Positions 349-15,865 of a DNA stretch of 64,000 nt are shown here, piece after piece. The stretch's first letter is position 1, and every line of letters starts with the position of its first letter. The stretch is taken from positions 1,376,001 to 1,440,000 of the forward strand of contig OZ244070.1 in NCBI GenBank assembly GCA_965215605.1, in the 5' to 3' direction. Under the pieces are notes generated by a model. The model saw only the letters and a program-made list of their open reading frames with translations. It made no database searches and had not been told where the DNA came from. The stretch comes from an uncultured Candidatus Binatia bacterium. GTDB taxonomy: Bacteria > Desulfobacterota > Binatia > UBA9968 > JAJDTQ01. The position numbers were made by a program, and so were the translations under genes.

Positions 349-1350
349 TCAGGATTCCCGCGGGGGGTTGGGCCAGGCGCGTTTGCCGGCGCCGAAGACG
401 TGGCAGGCGGTGCCGTGGCCGCCGAGGGCGAATTCCAGCTCGGGCTCCACCTCGACGCATTTCTGCTCGCGGAAGGGGCACCTGGGGTGGAAGTTGCAGC
501 CGGACGGGGGGTTGACGGGGCTCGGCACGTCGCCCTCCAGCACCATGCGGTCCTTCTTGGGATTGGGGTCGGGCATGGGCACGGCCGACAGCAGGGCGCG
601 GGTATAGGGGTGCCGGGCGTCGGTGTAGATGGCATTGCTGGGCGCGATCTCGACGATCTTGCCGAGATACATGATCGCCACCCGGTGGCTTACATGCTTC
701 ACCACCCGGAGGTCGTGGGAGATGAAGAAGAACGTGAGGCTCATGCTCTCCTGCAGCTCCTGCAGCAGATTGATGATCTGGGCCTGGATGGACACGTCCA
801 GGGACGATACCGGCTCGTCCGCGACGATGAACTTCGGCGACACGGCCAGGGCCCGGGCGATGCCGATGCGCTGGCGCTGGCCGCCGCTGAACTCGTGCGG
901 GTAGCGGTCGTAGTGCTCATCCCGGAGGCCCACCTTCTGGAGCAGCGACATGACCCGATCCCTGCGGTCGCTGCCCGAGGCCATGCGATGGATCTTGAGG
1001 CCCTCGCCGATGATGTCGCCGACTCTCATGCGCGGATTCAGCGAGGCGTACGGATCCTGGAAAATGATCTGCATGCGCCGGCGCAGGTCCCGCATCTCGG
1101 CGCCGGACACCCTCATGATGTCCCTGTCCTCGAACAGGATCTCGCCGGCCGTGGGCTCGATCAGGCGCAGGATGGTCCGGCCCAGCGTCGACTTGCCGCA
1201 CCCGGACTCGCCCACCACGCCGAGGGTCTCCCCATCCTCCACCGTCAGGCTGACGCCGTCCACCGCCTTGACGTCGCCCTTGCGCCGGGCAAGCAGCCCT
1301 TCCTCCACGGGGAAGTATGTCTTGAGGTTCCTGACTTCCAGCAAGCTCAT
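349..1350 (-). CDS. oligopeptide/dipeptide ABC transporter ATP-binding protein (OppF/DppF-like)
   Basis: Walker [20 protein letters not shown] Walker B, C-terminal GCNFHPRC oligo_HPY domain; start set at MSLLEVRNL. Confidence 0.93.
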
Positions 1351-1384
1351 GGGATAGGGTGTCCTGTCGTTCGGCGCGCCGCCT

Positions 1385-2347
<963 letters not shown>

Positions 2348-2575
2348 GCGCCGCGGACACTCCCTGCGAACCGGCCCTACCGCACCCGCGCAATGTACCA
2401 AAAAACGGCGGAGGTGCAAACGAGGTTCGTATTGCCTTTTGCTCGATAACAAGCCCGCTTGGCAAGGCTCCACGGAGAGCTTCAAGCGAGGTGTCGTCCG
2501 TGACCCCGTTTCCTTGATAGACAGGCTGAATCCTGTTAGACGCCAACGAGACAGGGGCTTACGCTCCCGGCCGTC

Positions 2576-2878
2576 ATGGAAGCGCCTGACCACAGCCACA
2601 CCGGCGACACGGACGCGCTCATCGAGCAGCTCGCCTTGGCGGTGCATGCCCGCCGCATGACCGTGCCGGCGATCCTCTTCCTGGAAGCCCACAAGCCGCT
2701 GACGTCGCTGTTCCATGCCGCGGCGGTCATGAGCCTGCCGATGCTGCTGCCGCTGTTCGGCGCCCGGGCGCGGGAGTTGCCGGCGTTTCTGCAGTCCCGC
2801 GGCAACGTCGAACGATTGATCCGCCGCATCGAGGCGCTGCAGGACACGGCAGCGGCGGCGAAAGGCGGCGCCGGCTGA
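2576..2878 (+). CDS. small hypothetical protein with central hydrophobic helix, first gene of the DUF6754/GlmL-like operon
   Basis: GC-rich coding bias; [12 protein letters not shown] segment; TGATG overlap with next gene. Confidence 0.75.
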
Positions 2879-3687
2879 TGGCGGGCTTCGAGAACGCCAC
2901 TCCCGCGGTGCTGGCGATCATGGCGCTCATGATCGGGCCGGTGCTCTGTTACATTCGCGTGGCGCGGCGCCGTCACGACCTGTACGTGCGACGCCTGACC
3001 GGGGTGGACGCCATCGACGAAGCCGCCGGCCGGTCGGCGGAGCTGGGCCGGCCCCTCTCCTTCTGTACCGGCATCACCAATGTCAGCCCGGTGCTGTACG
3101 CCTGCCTCGGGGTCCTCTACTACGTGGGACGCAAGGCCGCGCAGTACCGCTCGCGCCTGCTGCTGCCCCAGAACACTCCCGAGGTGATGGCCATCGCCGA
3201 GGACGTGCTCCGGGAAGCCTACCGCGCCGAGGGCCGTTCGGCCCAGTTCGACCCGCGCAACATCGTCTTTCTCTCCGAGGAGCAGTTCGCCTTCGCCGCC
3301 GGCTACATCGGGCTGGTGCAGCGGGAGCGCGTGGCCGGCGCCTTCCTCTTCGGCCACTTCGCCGCCGAATCGCTGATCCTGGCGGAGGCCGGACAGCAGG
3401 TGGGGGCCATGCAGGTGGGCGCCTCGGTGAGTCCCGAGCAGGTGGCGTTCTTCATCGCCGCCTGCGACTACACCCTCATCGGCGAGGAGCTGTTCGCCGC
3501 CTCCGCCTATCTCACCCGTGAGCCGGTCCAGCTCGGCAGCCTCTACGGGCAGGACCGGGCCAAGCTCTTCCTCTTCCTCATGATCGTGGCGGGCGTGGGC
3601 ATCGCCACCCTGAACTCCGTATGGCCCGATCTCGGCCTCACCAACCTGGACACGCTCATGCATCTCGGCTGGGGTTTCGGGTCATGA
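2878..3687 (+). CDS. DUF6754-like membrane-anchored protein
   Basis: N- and C-terminal TM helices around an alpha/beta domain; motifs [22 protein letters not shown] and [17 protein letters not shown] recalled from this family. Confidence 0.75.
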
Positions 3688-4733
3688 GCTTGCGGGCGCG
3701 TCTCATCAAGCTCGCCACCTTCCTGGGCGGCATCTATTTCTTCCTGGAGTTCGTTCTGCCGGGCACGGTGTTCGGGGTGAAAATCGACGCCTACCACGAC
3801 CAGATCTCCAACGGCTTCATCACGGTGGCGGCCATGGCCGCGGGGCTCGGGCTCATCAACCTGCTCATGCAGCACGGCTCGAGGATCGTCTTCCGGCGCC
3901 GGGGGTGGCTCTACAGCCTGACGTTGCTTGGCGGCCTCGCCATCATGATCGCGGTGACCCTCCAGGACTGGCGCGGCACCGGCCGGGTGGCAGAAGAGGT
4001 GGCGGGCATCTCCCGGCTGGCGGATTTCGCGGAGCGCATCAAGTCGGATCACGAGGCAACGGCGCGAGGGGTCCTGCCCGCGGCCGAGCGCAACCGCAGC
4101 CTCCGGCAGGCGGCGGACAAGCTGCTGGCGCGCATCGAGGACGAGAGCCGCGCCCTCGACCTCGACCGGTTGGGGCTCGGCAGCGCCGATCACGCGCTCG
4201 CGCGGCGCTACGTGGCGGAGGCTGGGGAAGGCGCCGCGGCGGCGCGCGCCGCGGCGGCGGGGCTGACGGTGACCGACGGCGAGGCGGCGGACCTGGCCGC
4301 CAACCTGGCGGTGGCGCGCGCCCTGCGGGGCCTTGCCGAACCCTGGCGCAACCTGCGCAGCCTCGAGTACGAGCACTCCAACCCGAAGCACGTCTACCGG
4401 CTGCTGTTCGAGGGCCTGTTCGTGGCACTGGGTTCGGCCATGTTCTCGCTGTTGGGGTTCTACATCGCGGCCGCGGCCTACCGCGCCTTCCGGGTGCGTT
4501 CCGCCGAGTCGTCGCTGATGATGATCGCCGCCGTGCTGGTCATGCTCGGGCAGATCCCCTTCGGCGTATGGATCTGGTCCGGGCTGCCGGACGTGAGGCT
4601 GTGGCTCCTGGAGGTGCCCAACTCGGCGGCGTTCCGGGCCATCACCATCGGCGCCGGGGTGGCGGGGCTGGTGATGGCGTTCCGCATGTGGTTCTCCATC
4701 GAATCGGAGTCCTTCGACCGGGAGGAGCCCTGA
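3684..4733 (+). CDS. multi-pass membrane protein with large Ala-rich helical insertion
   Basis: ATGA overlap with upstream stop; about 3 N-terminal and 3 C-terminal TM segments; YIAAAAYRAFRVRS motif. Confidence 0.8.
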   Translation: MSLRARLIKLATFLGGIYFFLEFVLPGTVFGVKIDAYHDQISNGFITVAAMAAGLGLINLLMQHGSRIVFRRRGWLYSLTLLGGLAIMIAVTLQDWRGTGRVAEEVAGISRLADFAERIKSDHEATARGVLPAAERNRSLRQAADKLLARIEDESRALDLDRLGLGSADHALARRYVAEAGEGAAAARAAAAGLTVTDGEAADLAANLAVARALRGLAEPWRNLRSLEYEHSNPKHVYRLLFEGLFVALGSAMFSLLGFYIAAAAYRAFRVRSAESSLMMIAAVLVMLGQIPFGVWIWSGLPDVRLWLLEVPNSAAFRAITIGAGVAGLVMAFRMWFSIESESFDREEP

Positions 4734-4734
4734 C

Positions 4735-5640
4735 GTGGACCTCGCCCGGCTCGACCGCCGCTGGATCTACCTGCTGGTTTTTCTGGCCTTGAGCGTGCCC
4801 ATCGTCACCCAATACACGGTGGAGCCGGCGCGCATGAGCGGCGCGGATCGATTCTTCGAGGTGGTGGACGGCATCGAGGCCGCGCCCGGCCGCTACGCCT
4901 TCGTGGCCATGGACTTCGGCCCCAGCACCAAGGGCGAGAACCAGCCCCAGGCGCGGGCGGTGGTGGAGCATCTGATGCGCAGGCGCATCCCGGTGATCCT
5001 GTTCTCGCTCTATTTCCTCGCCGAGCCGTTCCTCAAATCCATCCCCGAAGAAGTGGCCCGGCAACTCGAGCGCGAGCACCCCGGCGAGACCTGGGAATAC
5101 GGCCGCGACTGGATCAACCTGGGCTACCGGCCGGGGGCGGGCGTCCTCATCCAGGCGATCCCCAAGTCGGAGAACCTCGCCGAGCTGTTCGAGAAGGACA
5201 CCCGCGGCAACCGCATCTCCGAGCTGCCCGCCTTCAGCGGACTGCGCACGTTGCGCCAGATCGCCTTCCTGGCCGAGTTCACCGGCCTGGTGGGTGTCTT
5301 CGACAACTACGTCCAGTACTTCACCAGCAAGGACTACACGCCCGCGTTCGGCCACGGCTGCACCTCCATCACCATCCCGGAAGCGTTCATCTACCTCGAC
5401 TCGGGGCAGATCCAGGGACTGCTGGGGGGCCTGGCGGGGGCGGCGTGGTACTCGGAGCTGCTGCGCCAGCGCTACCCCCGGCGTCCGGTGGACGAGTCGC
5501 TGATGCTCAACACCGGCCTCGGCGTCGCCCAGCTCGTGGTCATCGCCTTCATCGTGCTGGGCAACCTGGCCGGGCTGCTGCGCCCTTCGGCGCCGCGGCG
5601 TGGACGGGAGAAGGGGCCCGGACAGGACACGGAACCATGA
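4735..5640 (+). CDS. membrane-anchored hypothetical protein (N- and C-terminal TM, soluble core)
   Basis: GTG start with GGAGGAG upstream; DRRWIYLL N-terminus; YLDSGQIQGLLGGLAGAAWY. Confidence 0.8.
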   Translation: MDLARLDRRWIYLLVFLALSVPIVTQYTVEPARMSGADRFFEVVDGIEAAPGRYAFVAMDFGPSTKGENQPQARAVVEHLMRRRIPVILFSLYFLAEPFLKSIPEEVARQLEREHPGETWEYGRDWINLGYRPGAGVLIQAIPKSENLAELFEKDTRGNRISELPAFSGLRTLRQIAFLAEFTGLVGVFDNYVQYFTSKDYTPAFGHGCTSITIPEAFIYLDSGQIQGLLGGLAGAAWYSELLRQRYPRRPVDESLMLNTGLGVAQLVVIAFIVLGNLAGLLRPSAPRRGREKGPGQDTEP

Positions 5641-6347
5641 CGGCCCTGGACACCTGGCATACGGCCACGGTCCTGGTGGGGGGCATCGGGACGCTGGCGA
5701 TCTTCAGCTTCCTGATCAAGGAGAACCCGTTCTTCCGGCTGTTCGAGCACCTGTTCATCGGCATCGCCGCCGGCTTCGGCATGGTCTTCGGCGTCAAGAA
5801 CTTCCTGTGGCCGAAGGTTCTGGTGCCGATGCTCGGCCTGGACATCGTCACCTATCCCGACGGCAGCCTCTCCCACGAGTACGACCCCCGGCTGCTGCTC
5901 TACCTCGCGCCCATGGTCTTCGGCCTCTTCTACTACTTCCTGTACTCACGGCGGTACGCGTGGCTCGCCAAGCTGGTCATCGGCTTCTCCCTGGGGATGA
6001 GCGGCGGGCTCGCCTTCAAGGGATTCTTCAACCAGATCATGCCCCAGGTGGCGAGCAGCTTCCGGCCCCTGGCGGTGTTCGAGGACGGCGCCCTGAATCT
6101 GGCCGGCAGCTTGGAGAACGCGTTCTTCATCTTCACGCTGCTGGCCGTCATGTACTACTTCTTCTTCTCGTTCCGGCACGAGAACCGGGCGGCCAACGGC
6201 CTCTCGCTCTCCGGCCGGTGGCTCCTGATGGTGTGCTTCGGGGCCTTCTTCGGCTCCACGGTCATGGCGCGCACCGCGCTGCTGGTGGAGCGGGTGCAGT
6301 TCCTGCTGATCGACTGGTACGGCGCGCTGGCGGGGCTGGTGACGTGA
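5637..6347 (+). CDS. integral membrane protein (about 6 TM)
   Basis: ATGA overlap; KENPFFRLFEHLFIG and FGAFFGSTVMAR motifs; highly hydrophobic. Confidence 0.8.
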   Translation: MTALDTWHTATVLVGGIGTLAIFSFLIKENPFFRLFEHLFIGIAAGFGMVFGVKNFLWPKVLVPMLGLDIVTYPDGSLSHEYDPRLLLYLAPMVFGLFYYFLYSRRYAWLAKLVIGFSLGMSGGLAFKGFFNQIMPQVASSFRPLAVFEDGALNLAGSLENAFFIFTLLAVMYYFFFSFRHENRAANGLSLSGRWLLMVCFGAFFGSTVMARTALLVERVQFLLIDWYGALAGLVT

Positions 6348-8182
6348 AAACCGACCCGGACACGCTCCGCACCGTGCTGGTCACCGACTGCGGCTCCACC
6401 ACCACCAAGGCGCTGCTGTTCGAGAAGACCCCCGAGGGGTGGCGCCAGACCCGCCGCGGGGAGGCGCCCACCACCGTGGAGCAGCCGGTGGCCGACGTGA
6501 CCGTGGGAGCGCTGAACGCTTTCGCCGAGGTGGAAGAGATCAGCGGCCGGCAGATCCTGGCGGCGGACGCGGCGGCGGGACGCGGCGCGCCGTTCGTCGA
6601 GTCGGGCGAGGACCCCGCCCACGGCATCGACCTCTACCTCTCCACCAGCTCCGCCGGCGGCGGGTTGCAGATGACCGTGGCCGGGGTGGCGCGGCAGATG
6701 AGCGCGGAGTCGGCGGAACGCGCGGCCTTGAGCGCCGGCGCCATCGTCATGGACGCCATCTCCGCCGACGACGGGCGCGAGGACCACGAGCGCATTCAGC
6801 GGCTGCGCCACCTGAGGCCGGACATCGTGCTGCTCACCGGCGGCGTCGACGGCGGCTCCCAGGAGCACGTGGTGGAAATGGCGGAGACCCTGGTGGCGGC
6901 GGCGCCCCGGCCCCGGTTCGGCGACTCGCTGCGGCTGCCGGTGATCTACGCGGGCAACAGCCACGCCGTGGACGACGTCCGGGGCATCCTCGAGAAGACC
7001 GCCCAGGTGGCGGTGGTGGACAACGTGCGCCCGACCCTGGAGGCCGAGAACCTCGGCCCGGCCCGGGAGGCCATCCACGAGTTCTTCCTCACCCACGTCA
7101 TGAGCCACTCGCCCGGCTACGACAAGCTGCTGCGGTGGACCCCGACGCCGGTGATGCCCACGCCGGCGGCGGTGGGGGACATGGTGCGCGGCTACGCCGA
7201 GAGCACCGGCCGGGCGCTCTTGTGCGTGGATATCGGCGGCGCCACCACCGACGTCTTCAGCGTCTTCGAGAACCGGGACGGCGAGCGAGTGTTCAACCGC
7301 ACGGTGAGCGCCAACCTGGGCATGAGCTACTCCGTGGCCAACGTGCTGATCGAGGCCGGCGCCGAATCCATCGGCCGCTGGCTGCCCTACCCACTGGAGG
7401 CCGCCGAGATCCGGGACCGGCTGCGCAACAAGATGATCCGCCCCACCTCCATCCCCCAGACCCTGGAGGACCTGTGGCTGGAGCAGGCGGTGTGCCGCGA
7501 GGCCCTGCGGCTGGCGCTGGTGCATCACCGCTCGCTTGCGGTGGGGCTCAGCGGCGTGCAGCAGCAGCGCGGCATCGCCGACATCTTCTCGCAGACCGCC
7601 GGCCGCTCGGACCTGGTGGACATGATGGGCCTCGACCTGGTCATCGGCTCCGGCGGCGTGCTCAGCCACGCCCCGGACCGCATGGCGGCCGCGCTCATGA
7701 TCCTGGAGGGGTTCGAGCTCCAGGGCTTCACCCAGATCGCGGTGGACTCCATCTTCATGATGCCCCACCTGGGGGTCTTCGCCTCCGTCCATCCCGAGGC
7801 CGCCCGGGAGATCTTCCTGCACGACTGCCTGGTGAACGTGGCCCACGCCGTCGTGCCGGTCTTCTCCCGCAAGCGGAGGCCGGGGTCGGTGCTGGCCGAG
7901 GTGTCGGTGGACGGCGCCCGGCCCGGCGCCATCACCGCCGGCGGCGTCGGCCACGTCCCGCTCGATGCCGGCGCCGCGGCGCGGATCATCATCGAGCCCG
8001 CGGGCCGGGACGTCGACGTGGGCGCCGGGCCGGGGACGGCCCTGCTGCGGGAGTTCACCACCGGACTCTGCGGCCTGATCCTCGACGGCCGCAACCGCCC
8101 GCTGCGAACCCCGGCGTCCCCGGACCAGCAGGTCGCGGAACGGCAGGCCGTCATGGAGGAATTGGGGCTCACCGGATCATGA
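6344..8182 (+). CDS. glutamate mutase L (GlmL/MutL)-like ASKHA-fold ATPase, 612 aa
   Basis: GTGA overlap; phosphate-1 TDCGSTTTK, SSAGGGL, LTGGVDGG, MPTP, phosphate-2 VDIGGATTDVFS, GSGGVL. Confidence 0.85.
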   Translation: MKTDPDTLRTVLVTDCGSTTTKALLFEKTPEGWRQTRRGEAPTTVEQPVADVTVGALNAFAEVEEISGRQILAADAAAGRGAPFVESGEDPAHGIDLYLSTSSAGGGLQMTVAGVARQMSAESAERAALSAGAIVMDAISADDGREDHERIQRLRHLRPDIVLLTGGVDGGSQEHVVEMAETLVAAAPRPRFGDSLRLPVIYAGNSHAVDDVRGILEKTAQVAVVDNVRPTLEAENLGPAREAIHEFFLTHVMSHSPGYDKLLRWTPTPVMPTPAAVGDMVRGYAESTGRALLCVDIGGATTDVFSVFENRDGERVFNRTVSANLGMSYSVANVLIEAGAESIGRWLPYPLEAAEIRDRLRNKMIRPTSIPQTLEDLWLEQAVCREALRLALVHHRSLAVGLSGVQQQRGIADIFSQTAGRSDLVDMMGLDLVIGSGGVLSHAPDRMAAALMILEGFELQGFTQIAVDSIFMMPHLGVFASVHPEAAREIFLHDCLVNVAHAVVPVFSRKRRPGSVLAEVSVDGARPGAITAGGVGHVPLDAGAAARIIIEPAGRDVDVGAGPGTALLREFTTGLCGLILDGRNRPLRTPASPDQQVAERQAVMEELGLTGS

Positions 8183-9294
8183 CCCAGGCGCTCACACCCG
8201 GACTTCAGGTGCTGGCCGGCACGGTGGTGCGGAAGACCCGCGAGTTGCCGGTGCCAGGGGAGACCCTGTGCCGGCTTGGCGACACCGTGACGCCGTACGC
8301 CGTGGTGGCCCGGGCCGAGCTGCCCGGCGAGATCACCATCCTGCGCATACCCGAGAGCCTCGGCATCGAGCCCCTCGAGGCGCTCAATGGGCTCAAGGTG
8401 GACGAAGGCGACGCGGTCGCCGAGGGCGATCTCGTGTGCGAGCACGTGGGACTGTTCGGGCTCTTCCGGTCACGCCTCCACGCGTCCGTGGACGGCACCG
8501 TCGAGTTCGTCGCCCGGCGCACCGGCCACCTGGGGCTTCGGCTGGCGCCCCACGCCATCGAGCTGCGCGCCTACGTGCCCGGCAAGGTGGTGGGGATCGA
8601 CCCCGGCAAGTCCGTCACCATCGAGAGCCGCGGCGCGTTCATCCAGGGCATCTTCGGCGTCGGCGGCGAACGCTACGGCACCATCCGCATGCTGGACGGC
8701 GGCCCCCGGACGGTGGTGGGCAGGAAAAGGATACCCGACGACGCGGCCGGACAGGTGCTGGTGGGAGGCACCCGCCCGACCCTCGAGGCCATCCAGCGGG
8801 CCGCGGAAGTGGGCGCCGCCGGCATGGTGGTGGGATCCATCGACGACCAGACCCTCACCGCCTACCTCGGATACGAGCTCGGCATGGCGGTGACCGGCCA
8901 CGAGGACGTCCCCCTCACCGTCATCGTCACCGAAGGCTTCGGCTGGCTGCCCCTGGCCGAGCGCACCCACTCCCTGCTCCAGAGCCTCGACGGCCGCGCC
9001 GCCTCCGTCAACGGCGCCACCCAGGTGCGGGCCGGCGCGGTGCGCCCGGAAATCATCGTCGCCCGTGACGATGTCGAGCCCGGCGGCGGGGAAGAGGACG
9101 CGGAAACCGGCCTGCGAATCGGCGCCCCCATCCGCATCATCCGGGTCCCCCACTTCGGCGTCACCGCGGAGGTGGCCGCCCTGCCCCCCGAACCCCAGCC
9201 CATCGAAACCGGCGCCCGCACCCGCGTCCTGGAAGCCCGGCTGCCCGACGGCAAGGTCGTCACCGTGCCGCGGGCCAACGTGGAACTGCTCTGA
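8179..9294 (+). CDS. hypothetical protein with barrel-sandwich-hybrid-like repeats and a KOW/SH3-like C-terminus
   Basis: ATGA overlap; VDEGDAVAEGD...ASVDGTV and AYVPGKV hybrid-like motifs; QGIFGVGGE; C-terminal IGAPIRIIR...VTVPRANVELL. Confidence 0.8.
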   Translation: MTQALTPGLQVLAGTVVRKTRELPVPGETLCRLGDTVTPYAVVARAELPGEITILRIPESLGIEPLEALNGLKVDEGDAVAEGDLVCEHVGLFGLFRSRLHASVDGTVEFVARRTGHLGLRLAPHAIELRAYVPGKVVGIDPGKSVTIESRGAFIQGIFGVGGERYGTIRMLDGGPRTVVGRKRIPDDAAGQVLVGGTRPTLEAIQRAAEVGAAGMVVGSIDDQTLTAYLGYELGMAVTGHEDVPLTVIVTEGFGWLPLAERTHSLLQSLDGRAASVNGATQVRAGAVRPEIIVARDDVEPGGGEEDAETGLRIGAPIRIIRVPHFGVTAEVAALPPEPQPIETGARTRVLEARLPDGKVVTVPRANVELL

Positions 9295-9419: not shown

Positions 9420-11267
9420 ATGCGATCGAGTGGGGTAATGGCGGCGGTATTGTGGGCGTTGATTTCGGTCCTTGTGCCCGGACTCGGAGGCTCGAGCGAA
9501 GAGGTTCGACCCAGCCATGGCATCGCCATGCACGGCGACCTCAAGTACGCGCCGGACTTCAGGCACTTCGACTACGTGAACCCGCGGGCGCCCAAGGGCG
9601 GGACGGTGCGGCTCCAGGCCATCGGCACCTTCGACAGCTTCAACCCCTTCATCGTCAAGGGAAGCCCGGCGGCGGGCATCGGGCGCATCTACGAGACCTT
9701 GATGGCCGGGTCGGCGGACGAGCCCTTCAGCGAGTACGGGCTGCTGGCGGAGAGCATCACGGTGCCCAAGGACCGCTCCTGGGTGCAGTTCACGCTGCAT
9801 GCGGAGGCGCGCTGGCACGACGGCAAGCCGGTGACCGCGGATGACGTGGCCTGGACCTTCGAGACGCTGATCACCAAGGCCGTCCCGTTCTACCGCGGCT
9901 ACTACGGCGACGTGAAGAAGGTCGAGAAGCTCGACCCACGGACCGTACGGTTCACCTTCGCCGGCGGCGCCAACCGCGAACTGCCGCTGATCCTGGGACA
10001 ACTGGTGGTGCTGCCGAAGCACTACTGGGCCGGCAGGGACTTCACCAAGACGACCCTGGAGCCGCCCGTGGGGAGCGGTCCGTACAAGATCGGCGCCTTC
10101 GAACCCGGACGCCACGTGGAGTACCAGCGGGTGGAGGACTACTGGGGCAAGGACCTGCCGGTGAACGTGGGGCGCAACAACTTCGACCGCATCCGCCACG
10201 ACTACTACCGCGACGGCACCGTGTCGGTGGAGGCATTCAAGGCCGGGGAGTACGACTTCCGCTACGAGAACAGCTCCAAGAACTGGGCCACCTCCTACGA
10301 CTTCCCGGCGCTGCGGCAGGGCCTGGTCAAGAAGGAGGAGATCCCGCACGACCGCTCCACCGGCATGCAGGCGTTCGCCATCAACACCCGCCGCCCGCTG
10401 TTCCAGGACCGCAAGGTCCGGCAGGCGCTGGCCTATGCGTTCGACTTCGAGTGGTCCAACCGGACCCTTTTCTACGGGCAGTACCAGCGCAACCGCAGCT
10501 ACTTCGACAACTCGGAGCTGGCGGCCGCCGGACCGCCGGGCCCGGCGGAGCTGGCGATCCTGAAGCCCTACCGCGGCCTGTTGCCCGAGGAGGTCTTCAC
10601 CAAGGCCTACGATCCGCCCGCCACCGACGGCTCGGGACGCATCCGCGCCAACCTCCGCCAGGGGTCGAAGCTGTTGCGGGAGGCCGGCTGGGGCATCGAC
10701 AAGACCACCCGCAAGCTCACCCACCAGGCCACCGGCCGGGTCATGGAATTCGAGATCCTGCTGGTAAGCCCGCTGTTCGAGCGCATCGTCCTTCCCTTCA
10801 AGAAGAACCTCGAACGGCTCGGGATCGCCGTCAGCGTGCGCACCGTGGACAGCGCGCAGTACCGCCGCCGTCTGGACGACTTCGACTTCGACATGGTCAT
10901 CGGAAGCTGGGGACAGTCCCTTTCCCCCGGCAACGAGCAACGCGATTACTGGGGGTCGGACTTCGCCGACCGGCCCGGCAGCCGGAACCTCGCGGGCATC
11001 AAGGACCCGGCCGTGGACGCGCTCATCGAGGGCGTGATCAACGCACCCGACCGCAAGAGCCTGGTCAACCACGTGCGCGCCCTGGACCGCGTGCTCCAGT
11101 GGGGCCACTGGGTGATCCCCCAGTGGCACATCCCCTACGACCGCCTGGTCTACTGGGACCGCCTCGGCCGCCCGGAGACGACCCCCACCCAGGGGGTACA
11201 GTTCGACACCTGGTGGGTCGACGCCAGGAAGGCGGAGGAGCTGGAAGCGAAGCGGTCAGGGGGCTGA
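9420..11267 (+). CDS. yejA: peptide ABC transporter substrate-binding protein (YejA-like)
   Basis: Signal peptide; HGIAMHGDLKY..DF.HFDYVNP.APKGG, FDSFNPFI, SPGNEQRDYWGS; GGAGG RBS. Confidence 0.88.
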   Translation: MRSSGVMAAVLWALISVLVPGLGGSSEEVRPSHGIAMHGDLKYAPDFRHFDYVNPRAPKGGTVRLQAIGTFDSFNPFIVKGSPAAGIGRIYETLMAGSADEPFSEYGLLAESITVPKDRSWVQFTLHAEARWHDGKPVTADDVAWTFETLITKAVPFYRGYYGDVKKVEKLDPRTVRFTFAGGANRELPLILGQLVVLPKHYWAGRDFTKTTLEPPVGSGPYKIGAFEPGRHVEYQRVEDYWGKDLPVNVGRNNFDRIRHDYYRDGTVSVEAFKAGEYDFRYENSSKNWATSYDFPALRQGLVKKEEIPHDRSTGMQAFAINTRRPLFQDRKVRQALAYAFDFEWSNRTLFYGQYQRNRSYFDNSELAAAGPPGPAELAILKPYRGLLPEEVFTKAYDPPATDGSGRIRANLRQGSKLLREAGWGIDKTTRKLTHQATGRVMEFEILLVSPLFERIVLPFKKNLERLGIAVSVRTVDSAQYRRRLDDFDFDMVIGSWGQSLSPGNEQRDYWGSDFADRPGSRNLAGIKDPAVDALIEGVINAPDRKSLVNHVRALDRVLQWGHWVIPQWHIPYDRLVYWDRLGRPETTPTQGVQFDTWWVDARKAEELEAKRSGG

Positions 11268-11298
11268 GGGGCCGGGCACGAGATGACGTAGCTACTCC

Positions 11299-12414
11299 AT
11301 GTTCGCCTACATCATCCGCCGGCTGCTGCTGATCGTGCCGACGCTGTTCGGCATCATGGTGCTGAACTTCGTGATCATCCACTCGGCGCCGGGGGGGCCG
11401 GTGGAGCAGCTCCTGGCGAAGCTCCAGCAGACCGACGTGTCCGCCACCGAACGGTTCAGCGGCGGCGGCGACCAGCGGGAGGCAGGGCCGTCGGCGCAGC
11501 AGTCCAGCGACGCCGGCAGCAGCGCCGCCGGGCGGTACCGGGGCGCCCGCGGCATCGATCCCGAGTTCATCAAGGAGATCGAGCGCCAGTTCGGCTTCGA
11601 CAAGCCGGCCCACGAGCGTTTCCTGCTCATGATGGGCAACTTCCTGCGCTTCGACTTCGGCGACAGCTTCTTCCGCGACCGCTCGGTGGTGCAACTGGTG
11701 ATGGACAAGCTGCCGGTGTCCATCTCGCTGGGCCTGTGGACGACCCTGCTGGTGTACCTGGTGTCGATTCCGCTGGGGGTGGCCAAGGCGGTGCGGGACG
11801 GCTCGCGCTTCGACATCTGGAGCTCGGGGGCGGTGATCGTGGGCAACGCGGTGCCGGGCTTCCTGTTCGCCATCCTGCTGATCGTGCTGTTCGCCGGCGG
11901 CCGCTACCTCGACTGGTTCCCGCTGCGCGGCCTGGTGTCGGACAACTGGAGCGAGCTGGGCTTCTGGCAGCGCATCACCGACTACCTCTGGCACATCACC
12001 CTGCCGGTGGCGTCCATGGTCATCGGCGGCTTCGCCGGCCTCACCATGCTCACCAAGAACTCGTTCCTGGACCAGATCAACCAGCAATACGTGATGACCG
12101 CCCGGGCCAAGGGGCTGAGCGAGCGCCGGGTGCTGTACCGCCACGTGTTCCGCAACGCCATGCTCATCGTCATCGCCGGCTTTCCCGGCGCCTTCGTCGG
12201 CATACTGTTCACCGGCGCGCTGCTCACCGAGGTGATCTTCTCGCTGGACGGCGTCGGCCTGCTGGGGTTCGAGGCGGCCATCAACCGCGACTATCCGGTG
12301 ATGTTCGGCACACTGTACTTCTTCACCCTGCTGGGGCTGGCGATGAAGCTGGTGGAGGACCTGACCTACGTGGTGGTGGACCCGCGCATCGACTTCGAGA
12401 GCCGGGAGACCTGA
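11299..12414 (+). CDS. yejB: peptide ABC transporter permease (YejB-like)
   Basis: [27 protein letters not shown] loop TARAKGL, DPRIDF C-terminus. Confidence 0.9.
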
Positions 12415-12436
12415 GCGCCCCCCTGGATTCAACCGC

Positions 12437-15148
<2,712 letters not shown>

Positions 15149-15313: not shown

Positions 15314-15865
15314 ATGGGTTTGATCGTTACCGAATTGTATGACGCGCTGATCGAGGCCGGGGCCACCGAGAGAAAGGCCCGGGCCGCGGCTGCCGCCATC
15401 CCCCTTACGGAACATCTCGCCACCAGGGAAGATCTCGTGGCCACCGGCCGGCAACTCGCGGATCGGACCGCCGGCCTAGGGGTCGATCTCGGACAGGGGA
15501 TCGCAGACCTCAGGACCGAGATCAAGGAAGACACCGCGAGCCTCAGAGCCGAAGTCGACCGGCAAATCACAGAACTCAGAGCAGAAATCAAACAAGAAAT
15601 CGCGGAACTCAGAGCCGAGATCAAGGAAGAGATCGCGGAACTCAGAGCCGAGGTCGACCGGAAAATCGCAGAACTCAGAGCAGAGATCAAGGAAGACATC
15701 GCGGAACTCAGAGCTGAGGTCGACCAGAAAATCGCAGAACTCAGAGCAGAGATCAAGGAAGACATCGCCAAGCTGGACAAGAGAATCGCAGTGCTGAACC
15801 TGGGGGTGTTCAGCTTCGGCCCGGCGATACTCGCTCTGCTGGTCAAGCTGGCCTTCTTCCCGTAG
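15314..15865 (+). CDS. DUF1640/CCDC90-like head-neck-stalk-anchor coiled-coil protein
   Basis: Head LYDALIEAG, neck LATREDL, about 8 11-aa repeats (IAELRAEIKED), C-terminal TM ending LLVKLAFFP. Confidence 0.8.
   Translation: MGLIVTELYDALIEAGATERKARAAAAAIPLTEHLATREDLVATGRQLADRTAGLGVDLGQGIADLRTEIKEDTASLRAEVDRQITELRAEIKQEIAELRAEIKEEIAELRAEVDRKIAELRAEIKEDIAELRAEVDQKIAELRAEIKEDIAKLDKRIAVLNLGVFSFGPAILALLVKLAFFP
15500..15770 (+). repeat. 33-bp coding tandem repeat (about 8 imperfect copies)
   Basis: Unit like atcgcggaactcagagccgagatcaaggaagag. Confidence 0.85.

Follow-up and report, generated by a model that had tools for sequence, protein, structure and literature searches.

What does a protein labelled 'glutamate mutase L' do in an operon of membrane proteins that holds no mutase? 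The question is raised by a stretch of 64,000 nucleotides from an uncultured Candidatus Binatia bacterium (assembly GCA_965215605.1, contig OZ244070.1, positions 1,376,001 to 1,440,000), here called the window. Near its start lie seven co-oriented genes, g1 to g7, encoding a small protein (g1), four membrane proteins (g2 to g5), an ASKHA-family protein (g6) and its soluble partner (g7). We propose, at a probability of roughly one half, that together they form an ATP-driven solute importer of new architecture. Its function we infer. The open-access literature searched held no description of the system and no mention of DUF6754 or PF13941, the families to which g2 and g6 belong.

ATP-driven uptake of solutes by prokaryotes is credited to ABC and ECF transporters and to P-type ATPases. 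An importer driven by an ASKHA protein would, if real, add a class of transporter, and one for whose membrane subunits no relative has been solved. It is widespread among little-studied lineages (Armatimonadota, WOR-3, Zixibacteria, Cloacimonadota, Bathyarchaeia and digester Bacillota), and since a single genome can hold as many as 11 copies of DUF6754, it may be a main uptake route for protein breakdown products in sediment and digester microbes. The database label on g6 is a mislabel and can suggest B12 pathways where none exist. The question is also a testable one, because a hydrolase encoded next to a cassette names candidate substrates.

Is g6 a GlmL? Judged by its sequence, it is an ASKHA protein, a member of PF13941 ('MutL'; E = 2.3e-121, 406 bits against a cut-off of 27) and a true homologue of GlmL, yet not a GlmL. 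The sequence-only reading had described an actin/sugar-kinase fold with both phosphate loops intact, and the motifs of g6 bear out the loops. Its motifs DCGSTTTK, DIGGATTD and GSGG, which we take to be phosphate 1, phosphate 2 and adenosine, are conserved in 43, 39 and 43 of 45 family members; 25 of the 45 also match MreB-like_C weakly. Profile comparison with GlmL gives a probability of 100% over 425 columns, and the homology extends over about 490 residues at 27-31% identity to annotated GlmL. GlmL/MutL (PF13941, NF040745, TIGR01319) and Or-4 (NF040744) have the same nucleotide motifs as g6 but keep different company: GlmL stands beside glmS and the mutase E gene (the annotated glmL sits between the two), whereas g6 adjoins g7 or is fused to it, and occurs together with DUF6754. 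The protein has about 115 more C-terminal residues than GlmL and falls under all three NCBIfam cut-offs (213.8 against 475, 208.5 against 600 and 175 against 204). In four archaeal g6 sequences (L075, L155, L210 and L213) the phosphate 2 motif reads GLGGATTN rather than DIGGATTD. At L206 and L207 one g6 of a tandem pair has degenerate nucleotide motifs, which hints at an active/inactive ATPase pair.

An excerpt of PMC4682846 describes GlmL as a chaperone that reactivates the mutase. Could g6 likewise reactivate a B12 enzyme, or could the operon import cobalamin, as the label would suggest? Apart from the homology itself, two findings point that way: B12-binding domains match 4 of the 45 g6 members weakly (best E 0.013), and the genome that carries the window (G000) encodes two B12-binding proteins over cut-off, about 1.8 Mb from the operon. 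In that genome, 97% complete, neither glutamate mutase E nor a lysine/ornithine aminomutase domain (PF09043) was found, and the PF09043 search does detect the domain in five other genomes. Among 50 genomes bearing g7 (drawn from the 80 described below, long contigs being favoured), GlmE over cut-off was found in none and PF09043 in five. Four of these five have a separate short PF13941 gene (455-495 residues) about 2 kb from a PF09043 gene, with no g7 beside it, and the long forms adjoin g7. In a tree of 41 sequences (FastTree) the four short forms linked to a mutase group together as a clade (support 1.0), and the window's g6 sits among the g7-linked forms; the branch joining all g7-linked forms has a support of only 0.72. 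The insert of 41 g6-family sequences contains no DxHxxG motif. We also considered the insert as a mimic of GlmS, an idea left unsupported by an E of 0.22 against one GlmS. In a plasmid collection with 10 GlmL-like records, DUF6754 had no match. The independence from B12 mutases that had been suspected from the sequence stands, and we regard a B12 role as largely refuted and now hardly credible.

The soluble partner, g7, is predicted to consist of barrel-sandwich-hybrid domains, a central alpha/beta domain and a C-terminal KOW domain. The signals are weak and family-wide, consistent with the soluble barrel-sandwich-hybrid protein described earlier: at E up to 0.5, RnfC_N is matched by 76 of 113 family members, Biotin_lipoyl by 63 and KOW by 24. 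The window's g7 itself has a weak RnfC_N match in Pfam, and in the structure Atlas g7 falls in clusters labelled BSH/KOW. Its nearly invariant columns contain neither His nor Cys. A swivelling beta/beta/alpha domain like that of the reactivase DdrA is a lead from weak matches (RraA at E 0.8, the PA domain in 2 of 113 members). In four records, P0161, P0251, L208 and L209, g7 and g6 are fused.

How widely is the system found, and does it travel as seven genes? A g7 profile scan of species genomes yielded at least 564 confirmed relatives among 599 stretches, and the best 80 were examined. Their labels include Binatia, Bdellovibrionales, Armatimonadota, Bacillota, WOR-3, Zixibacteriota, Cloacimonadota, Fidelibacterota and Bathyarchaeota; among the matches listed, the closest named loci are in Candidatus Binatia assemblies, with g7 88% and 75% identical. 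All 50 of the g7 genomes tested carry DUF6754, and 49 carry PF13941. Conservation of the gene set across phyla, which the sequence-only reading expected of a unit, is borne out, but the set is not fixed: the complete order from 1 to 7 occurs in 9 of the 80 g7-anchored loci, other loci swap blocks, and in 33 (some on short contigs) g7 stands without the other six genes. Within the cassette, g3-g4-g5 follow g2 in 96 of 100 copies with 3.3 kb of downstream sequence (40 of 40 from metagenomes, 56 of 60 fetched from genomes). The four exceptions are two apparently broken copies and two in one archaeal genome. The system is a multipliable four-gene cassette, g2-g3-g4-g5, plus a shared ATPase module, g6-g7, with g1. 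This last gene adjoins g2 in some lineages and g6 in others, and its product is a candidate adaptor or membrane anchor. Tandem paralogous g6-g7 pairs in the order 6-7-1-6-7 occur in L016, L020, L032 and L043; L206 and L207 have tandem pairs too. There is also an optional eighth gene of about 150 amino acids, with two spans and a beta-rich domain that has no Pfam match. In Armatimonadota, Bacillota and other lineages it often lies immediately ahead of g1 or g2, and it is absent from G000; the 37 ORF (open reading frame) matches, some of them duplicates, include L159:5842-6315, L074:7276-7749 and L016:3480-4169.

Around the lineage of the window, DUF6754 occurs in 22 of 24 members of the genus, but the rest of the order (16 genomes) and 250 genomes drawn from the phylum gave no match. 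Both genus members that lack g2 are also without g6 and g7, and two that have g2 have both. In an unrooted tree the window's cassette nests among records labelled Bdellovibrionales and the like, with a support of 1.0. The simplest reading of this pattern is that the genus gained the whole operon horizontally.

Many cassettes may be served by few motors. In four genomes of Bacillota and Bathyarchaeia lineages (G045, G058, G066 and G081), 1.7-3.0 Mb in size, DUF6754 matches number 10, 11, 9 and 10, and long g6 copies 4, 3, 3 and 5. We fetched 38 of these DUF6754 copies, most of which lie in complete cassettes; paralogous cassettes within a genome are 27-46% identical. Across 117 paired cassettes g2 is the most conserved subunit (mean identity 43%), followed by g5 (36%) and g3 (35%), and g4 is the most variable (30%). 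Among 102 paralogue pairs, g2 is better conserved than g3, g4 and g5 in 89, 89 and 81. The same 117 cassettes show 112 covarying inter-chain pairs at z>5, against 30-40 after a shuffling that removes kinship, so that the excess may reflect shared descent. At L159, L160, L247 and L261 two copies of g2 precede one g3-g4-g5, perhaps a sign that each complex holds two g2 subunits.

What might the cassettes carry? At 40 cassette loci we scanned as many as two ORFs per side with NCBIfam (112 of 134 ORFs, after 22 short ones had been dropped), and 49 of these neighbours again with Pfam. Among the enzymes are D-aminoacylase-like amidohydrolases, gamma-glutamyltransferases, creatininase-family proteins, TldD/PmbA, racemases and epimerases; the peptidases belong to M14, M19, M20, M24, M81, S9 and S10. 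GntR or RpiR regulators lie beside cassettes at five loci. In the four genomes named above a peptidase or amidohydrolase lies within two ORFs at 19 of 37 loci, or 20 if one beta-lactamase-like gene is included, against 3 of 20 control stretches holding 65 ORFs (Fisher p=0.010, for 19). Some related cassettes of separate origin share their kind of hydrolase neighbour: L125 (G045) and L131 (G058) have a D-aminoacylase-like one (support 0.999), L123 and L284 a gamma-glutamyltransferase (support 0.911). For one large clade the data support import of peptide-like solutes, which for the window's copy is an extrapolation; the likely cargo is short peptides, or N-acyl, gamma-glutamyl or D-amino-acid derivatives. 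Beside the cassettes of L122, L143 and L144, DUF885 genes occur along with known peptidases, a lead on the function of DUF885; its standing as a peptidase lacks confirmation, and DUF885 by itself did not suffice for a locus to be counted. Directly downstream of the cassette in L074 and L259 is a gene with a carboxypeptidase-regulatory-like N-terminal domain, to which L074 adds a TonB-receptor plug.

How is the membrane part laid out? Hydropathy of g1 to g5 fits the four membrane proteins and the small, partly hydrophobic one described from the sequence. It gives two clear spans each in g2 and g4, six in g3 and five above threshold in g5, for which loop charges and the structure model give six. 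The second gene product matches DUF6754 (PF20539), a family of no assigned function, at E = 1.2e-81 (274 bits, cut-off 27). It is predicted to have its N-terminus outside, then a span, a cytoplasmic Rossmann-like domain (residues about 38-214) and a second span. In alignment averages, 3.9 K+R follow the first span of g2 against 0.7 before it, which puts the domain inside; in g4, 2.6 precede the first span and 3.2 follow the last, which puts the domain outside. Averaged loop charges place both termini of g3 inside and the N-terminus of g5 outside. The domains of g2 and g4 are thus predicted to face opposite sides, cytoplasm and exterior. Long forms of g2 start with apparent signal peptides, and three of seven extensions tested match fibronectin III, both of which agree with an outside N-terminus; in some lineages the N-terminal domains of g2 are fibronectin-III domains or larger exported ones. 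A profile likeness between g2 and g4 begins at the N-terminus and covers 94-116 columns (E about 2e-4, probability 48-50%); it is suggestive of an inverted repeat, not proof of one.

In the structure model of g2 (mean predicted local distance difference test, pLDDT, 94.2) a Rossmann-like domain lies between the two spans. Its relatives are tied at Z 9-10.4, with root-mean-square deviations of 3-4 over 110-150 residues: phosphoglycerate kinase, Sir2, short-chain dehydrogenases, RCK, USP and transhydrogenase domain III. Foldseek returned no match at E 0.001. The modelled fold is generic Rossmann-like, with no standout relative; the domain is a candidate docking site for the ATPase. A Cys196-Asp197 pair (window 3463-3468) is nearly invariant across DUF6754. 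The variable domain of g4 may capture substrate. Longer fusions of g4 were absent from 8000 candidates of 579-2000 residues, which is weak evidence, and a g4-g5 'fusion' at L159 is probably a sequence error, since a second short g4 piece sits in another frame. The third protein carries a conserved AAYRAFR loop; in the window's clade about 140 residues are added to its usual 205-amino-acid form. This addition (window 3960-4400) is Ala-rich, probably extracytoplasmic and without a Pfam match, and short g3 falls in unnamed clusters of the structure Atlas. The model of g5 is locally helical and well predicted (pLDDT 93.9), but its predicted template-modelling score (pTM) of 0.64 leaves the global shape not fixed by the chain alone, as would be expected of a subunit held by its partners. 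It has no fold match (best Z 5.8; best E 1.4), which does not in itself prove a new fold. Neither Pfam nor NCBIfam matches g1, g3, g4 or g5 at E 0.1, and a sequence search of solved structures with g2, g4, g6 and g7 gave nothing significant (best E 0.007, a KOW motif). DUF6754 aside, the membrane parts indeed lack a curated family or a solved relative, as far as Pfam, NCBIfam and structure comparison of the g2 and g5 models reach.

Does the motor touch the cassette? We predicted a complex of g6 (residues 8-497), g7 (4-298) and g2 (30-232). It scored 0.46 (three runs: 0.46, 0.48 and 0.42), the best of three controls scored 0.00, and the score fell to 0.00 with g6 replaced. The runs share at least 88% of contacts, with partner pLDDT of at least 70. 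In calibration, 116 of 157 solved complexes reached the mark, as did 2 of 215 mismatches, but only 18 of the 157 and both mismatches did so at 0.60 or under; the calibration set differs from this three-chain job with its own alignments. We know of no solved similar complex that the prediction could be remembering. The prediction lends weak support to an action of g6 on g2, raising its odds without establishing it. Of the ATP-dependent membrane complex that the sequence-only reading proposed, the tie between cassette and ATPase gains this much, whereas the single fixed seven-gene unit does not hold.

How might such an importer work? We propose that g2, g3, g4 and g5 assemble into a single membrane unit with some 16 spans, the variable, Rossmann-like g4 domain lying outside and the conserved, related g2 domain inside, and that g6-g7, helped by g1, are a soluble motor able to serve several such units. 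The domain of g4 would take up solute outside. The motor may then dock on the cytoplasmic domain of g2, as the complex model weakly suggests. By analogy with the reactivases of its family, which remodel client proteins, g6 would shut and reopen its actin-like cleft as it binds and hydrolyses ATP, and so pull on g2. Access would be switched by g3 and g5 and the solute freed inside, where, to judge from genomic context in Bacillota and Bathyarchaeia only, hydrolases encoded next door would cleave it. A bolder joint claim is tentative, and we rate it somewhat below an even chance: that this is a new class of primary active transporter in which an actin/Hsp70-fold ATPase, descended from or ancestral to the B12-enzyme reactivases, directly powers import by remodelling a Rossmann-like domain, with a pseudo-symmetric membrane unit of four subunits and, in peptide-scavenging bacteria and Bathyarchaeia, one motor for up to ten interchangeable, substrate-specific units.

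Several observations weigh against import of peptide-like solutes. No membrane subunit resembles a solved transporter, so transport itself we infer. Paralogy of g3 and g5 was considered but not shown, the comparison giving no convincing homology (probability 6%). The enrichment of hydrolases rests on four genomes of peptide-rich lineages, whose kin are not independent, and the controls were picked by the authors and went through Pfam alone, under a stricter E-value than was used in the second scan of the cassette neighbours. A further genome, G073, has a peptidase neighbour at none of its three cassette loci. Among 40 more cassette loci from other lineages (4 genome-fetched, 36 from metagenomes; 87 ORFs), six have one, which is the background rate, and three of the six are in one clade. 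Cassettes of the Armatimonadota type lie amid housekeeping genes (nucleotidyltransferase, PRPP synthetase, RecO). The window's cassette is outside the hydrolase-linked clade, so its cargo is an extrapolation. An SLBB-domain gene lies directly upstream of the cassette in L271 and L289, an arrangement that suits export.

Might the machine in fact work outward? ATP-driven export, or the building or remodelling of the envelope, with g6 as motor or scaffold, like other actin-fold proteins that act at membranes, and a surface polymer, lipid-linked precursor or protein moving out, would suit the single-copy cassettes that Armatimonadota and the window's clade have amid housekeeping genes, the exported N-terminal domains on some g2 and the SLBB genes, and the docking result fits it equally well, if weakly. 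The SLBB link, however, is confined to 2 of 40 loci in one subclade, and 9-11 diverged copies, often with their own hydrolase and regulator, fit substrate-specific uptake better. In the window's lineage the gain by one genus and the loss in 2 of its 24 members mean that this is not core envelope biology there. We consider export unlikely. A combination of transport with chemistry is distinctly unlikely: here g6 would be a kinase or an amide-activating enzyme (hydantoinase/oxoprolinase A-like) that modifies the solute, so that g6-g7 trap cargo admitted by the cassette as a channel or carrier. ASKHA proteins are frequently kinases, amide hydrolases are the commonest neighbours, and Hydantoinase_A and Hydant_A_N are matched weakly by 37 and 28 of the 45 g6 members (best E 4e-6 and 3e-4). 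The window's g6, at 16.8 bits, is under the Pfam cut-off of 22.9 for Hydantoinase_A, and no hydantoinase B subunit is found among the seven genes or the scanned neighbours. Against trapping, the nearest characterised relatives of g6, the GlmL proteins, are protein-remodelling factors, a handful of g6 copies would have to serve numerous cassettes whose hydrolases differ, and the nearly invariant columns of g7 offer no His for a phospho-relay.

Finally, the cassette might be an ion-driven secondary carrier or a transmembrane sensor, which g6-g7 only regulate, reset or assemble. Inverted halves facing in and out are typical of secondary carriers, and g2 and g4 are predicted to be so oriented; the g2 domain ties with RCK, USP and other regulatory domains (Z 9.0-9.5), and g6 and g7 are often far from the cassette. 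Yet the near-strict co-occurrence, the co-loss and the conserved nucleotide motifs point to an obligatory role for g6-g7, and the RCK and USP matches are tied with many unrelated Rossmann folds. We hold this alternative to be distinctly unlikely as well, and prefer ATP-driven import.

How does the proposed importer compare with systems already known? Group II ECF transporters have a shared EcfAA'T motor and many S components. At the level of gene counts, the many diverged membrane modules and few ATPase modules resemble this arrangement, as do the two paralogous g6-g7 pairs sometimes found in tandem. None of the seven proteins, however, is an ABC ATPase or has an ECF match in Pfam, the g5 model gave no match above Z 5.8 that would point to an S or T component, and the module that is multiplied here comprises four subunits with soluble domains on both sides of the membrane. 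The system is ECF-like in genomic logic but not an ECF transporter. Nor is it a binding-protein-dependent ABC importer: the seven proteins include neither an ABC ATPase nor a BPD_transp permease, and the scan is able to detect these families because flanking genes match them. That the operon lacks ABC and P-type ATPases and a mutase gene was confirmed with Pfam and NCBIfam. The diol/glycerol dehydratase reactivase DdrA-DdrB and EutA are ASKHA ATPases whose nucleotide cycling remodels a client protein, their clients being soluble B12 enzymes; EutA is matched weakly by 2 of the 45 g6 members. The barrel-sandwich-hybrid signal in g7 is like the N-termini of RnfC and NqrA, and Rnf/Nqr too have inverted membrane subunits. 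The likeness is offset by the lack of any flavin- or iron-sulphur-binding family in the subunits and of a nearly invariant Cys in g7, and such domains occur in many unrelated proteins.

The operon itself was reproduced as first described, with seven co-oriented ORFs, five overlaps and one 1-bp gap. From g1 to g7 the junctions are -1 (TGATG), -4 (ATGA), the +1 gap, -4 (ATGA), -4 (GTGA) and -4 (ATGA). The seven genes are real, since conserved homologues of each occur in the corresponding neighbourhood of other genomes, and each is single-copy in G000. The overlaps had also been taken as a sign of a stoichiometric complex. They are not kept everywhere (the cassette of L041 has gaps of 31, 21 and 35 bases) and are therefore evidence for an operon, not for stoichiometry. 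We found no sigma-70-like promoter at the operon, and terminator-like sites were at chance level.

Features of the operon and its surroundings (positions in the window)
Feature	Positions	Strand	Description
g1, 100 aa	2576-2878	+	helical, one weak hydrophobic stretch; no family
g2, 269 aa	2878-3687	+	DUF6754 (PF20539)
g3, 349 aa	3684-4733	+	six-span membrane protein; no family
g4, 301 aa	4735-5640	+	two spans around an extracytoplasmic domain
g5, 236 aa	5637-6347	+	six-span membrane protein; no fold match
g6, 612 aa	6344-8182	+	long GlmL/MutL-like ASKHA-family protein
g7, 371 aa	8179-9294	+	soluble partner of g6, barrel-sandwich-hybrid domains
ABC genes, upstream	349-2348	-	oligopeptide ABC ATPase genes
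ABC genes, downstream	9420-15148	+	family-5 binding protein, permease, 903-aa ORF (permease joined to two ABC domains)
183-aa ORF	15314-15865		11-residue coiled-coil repeats, hydrophobic span at the end

The operon is flanked by divergent oligopeptide ABC ATPase genes and by a family-5 binding-protein ABC importer. These peptide ABC genes may be a chance placement, because the site is inherited within the genus. The fused permease-ABC ORF downstream is probably real, since ORFs of 909 and 947 amino acids sit at that place in L009 and L010. The coiled-coil ORF beyond it has weak apolipoprotein and CCDC90-like matches.

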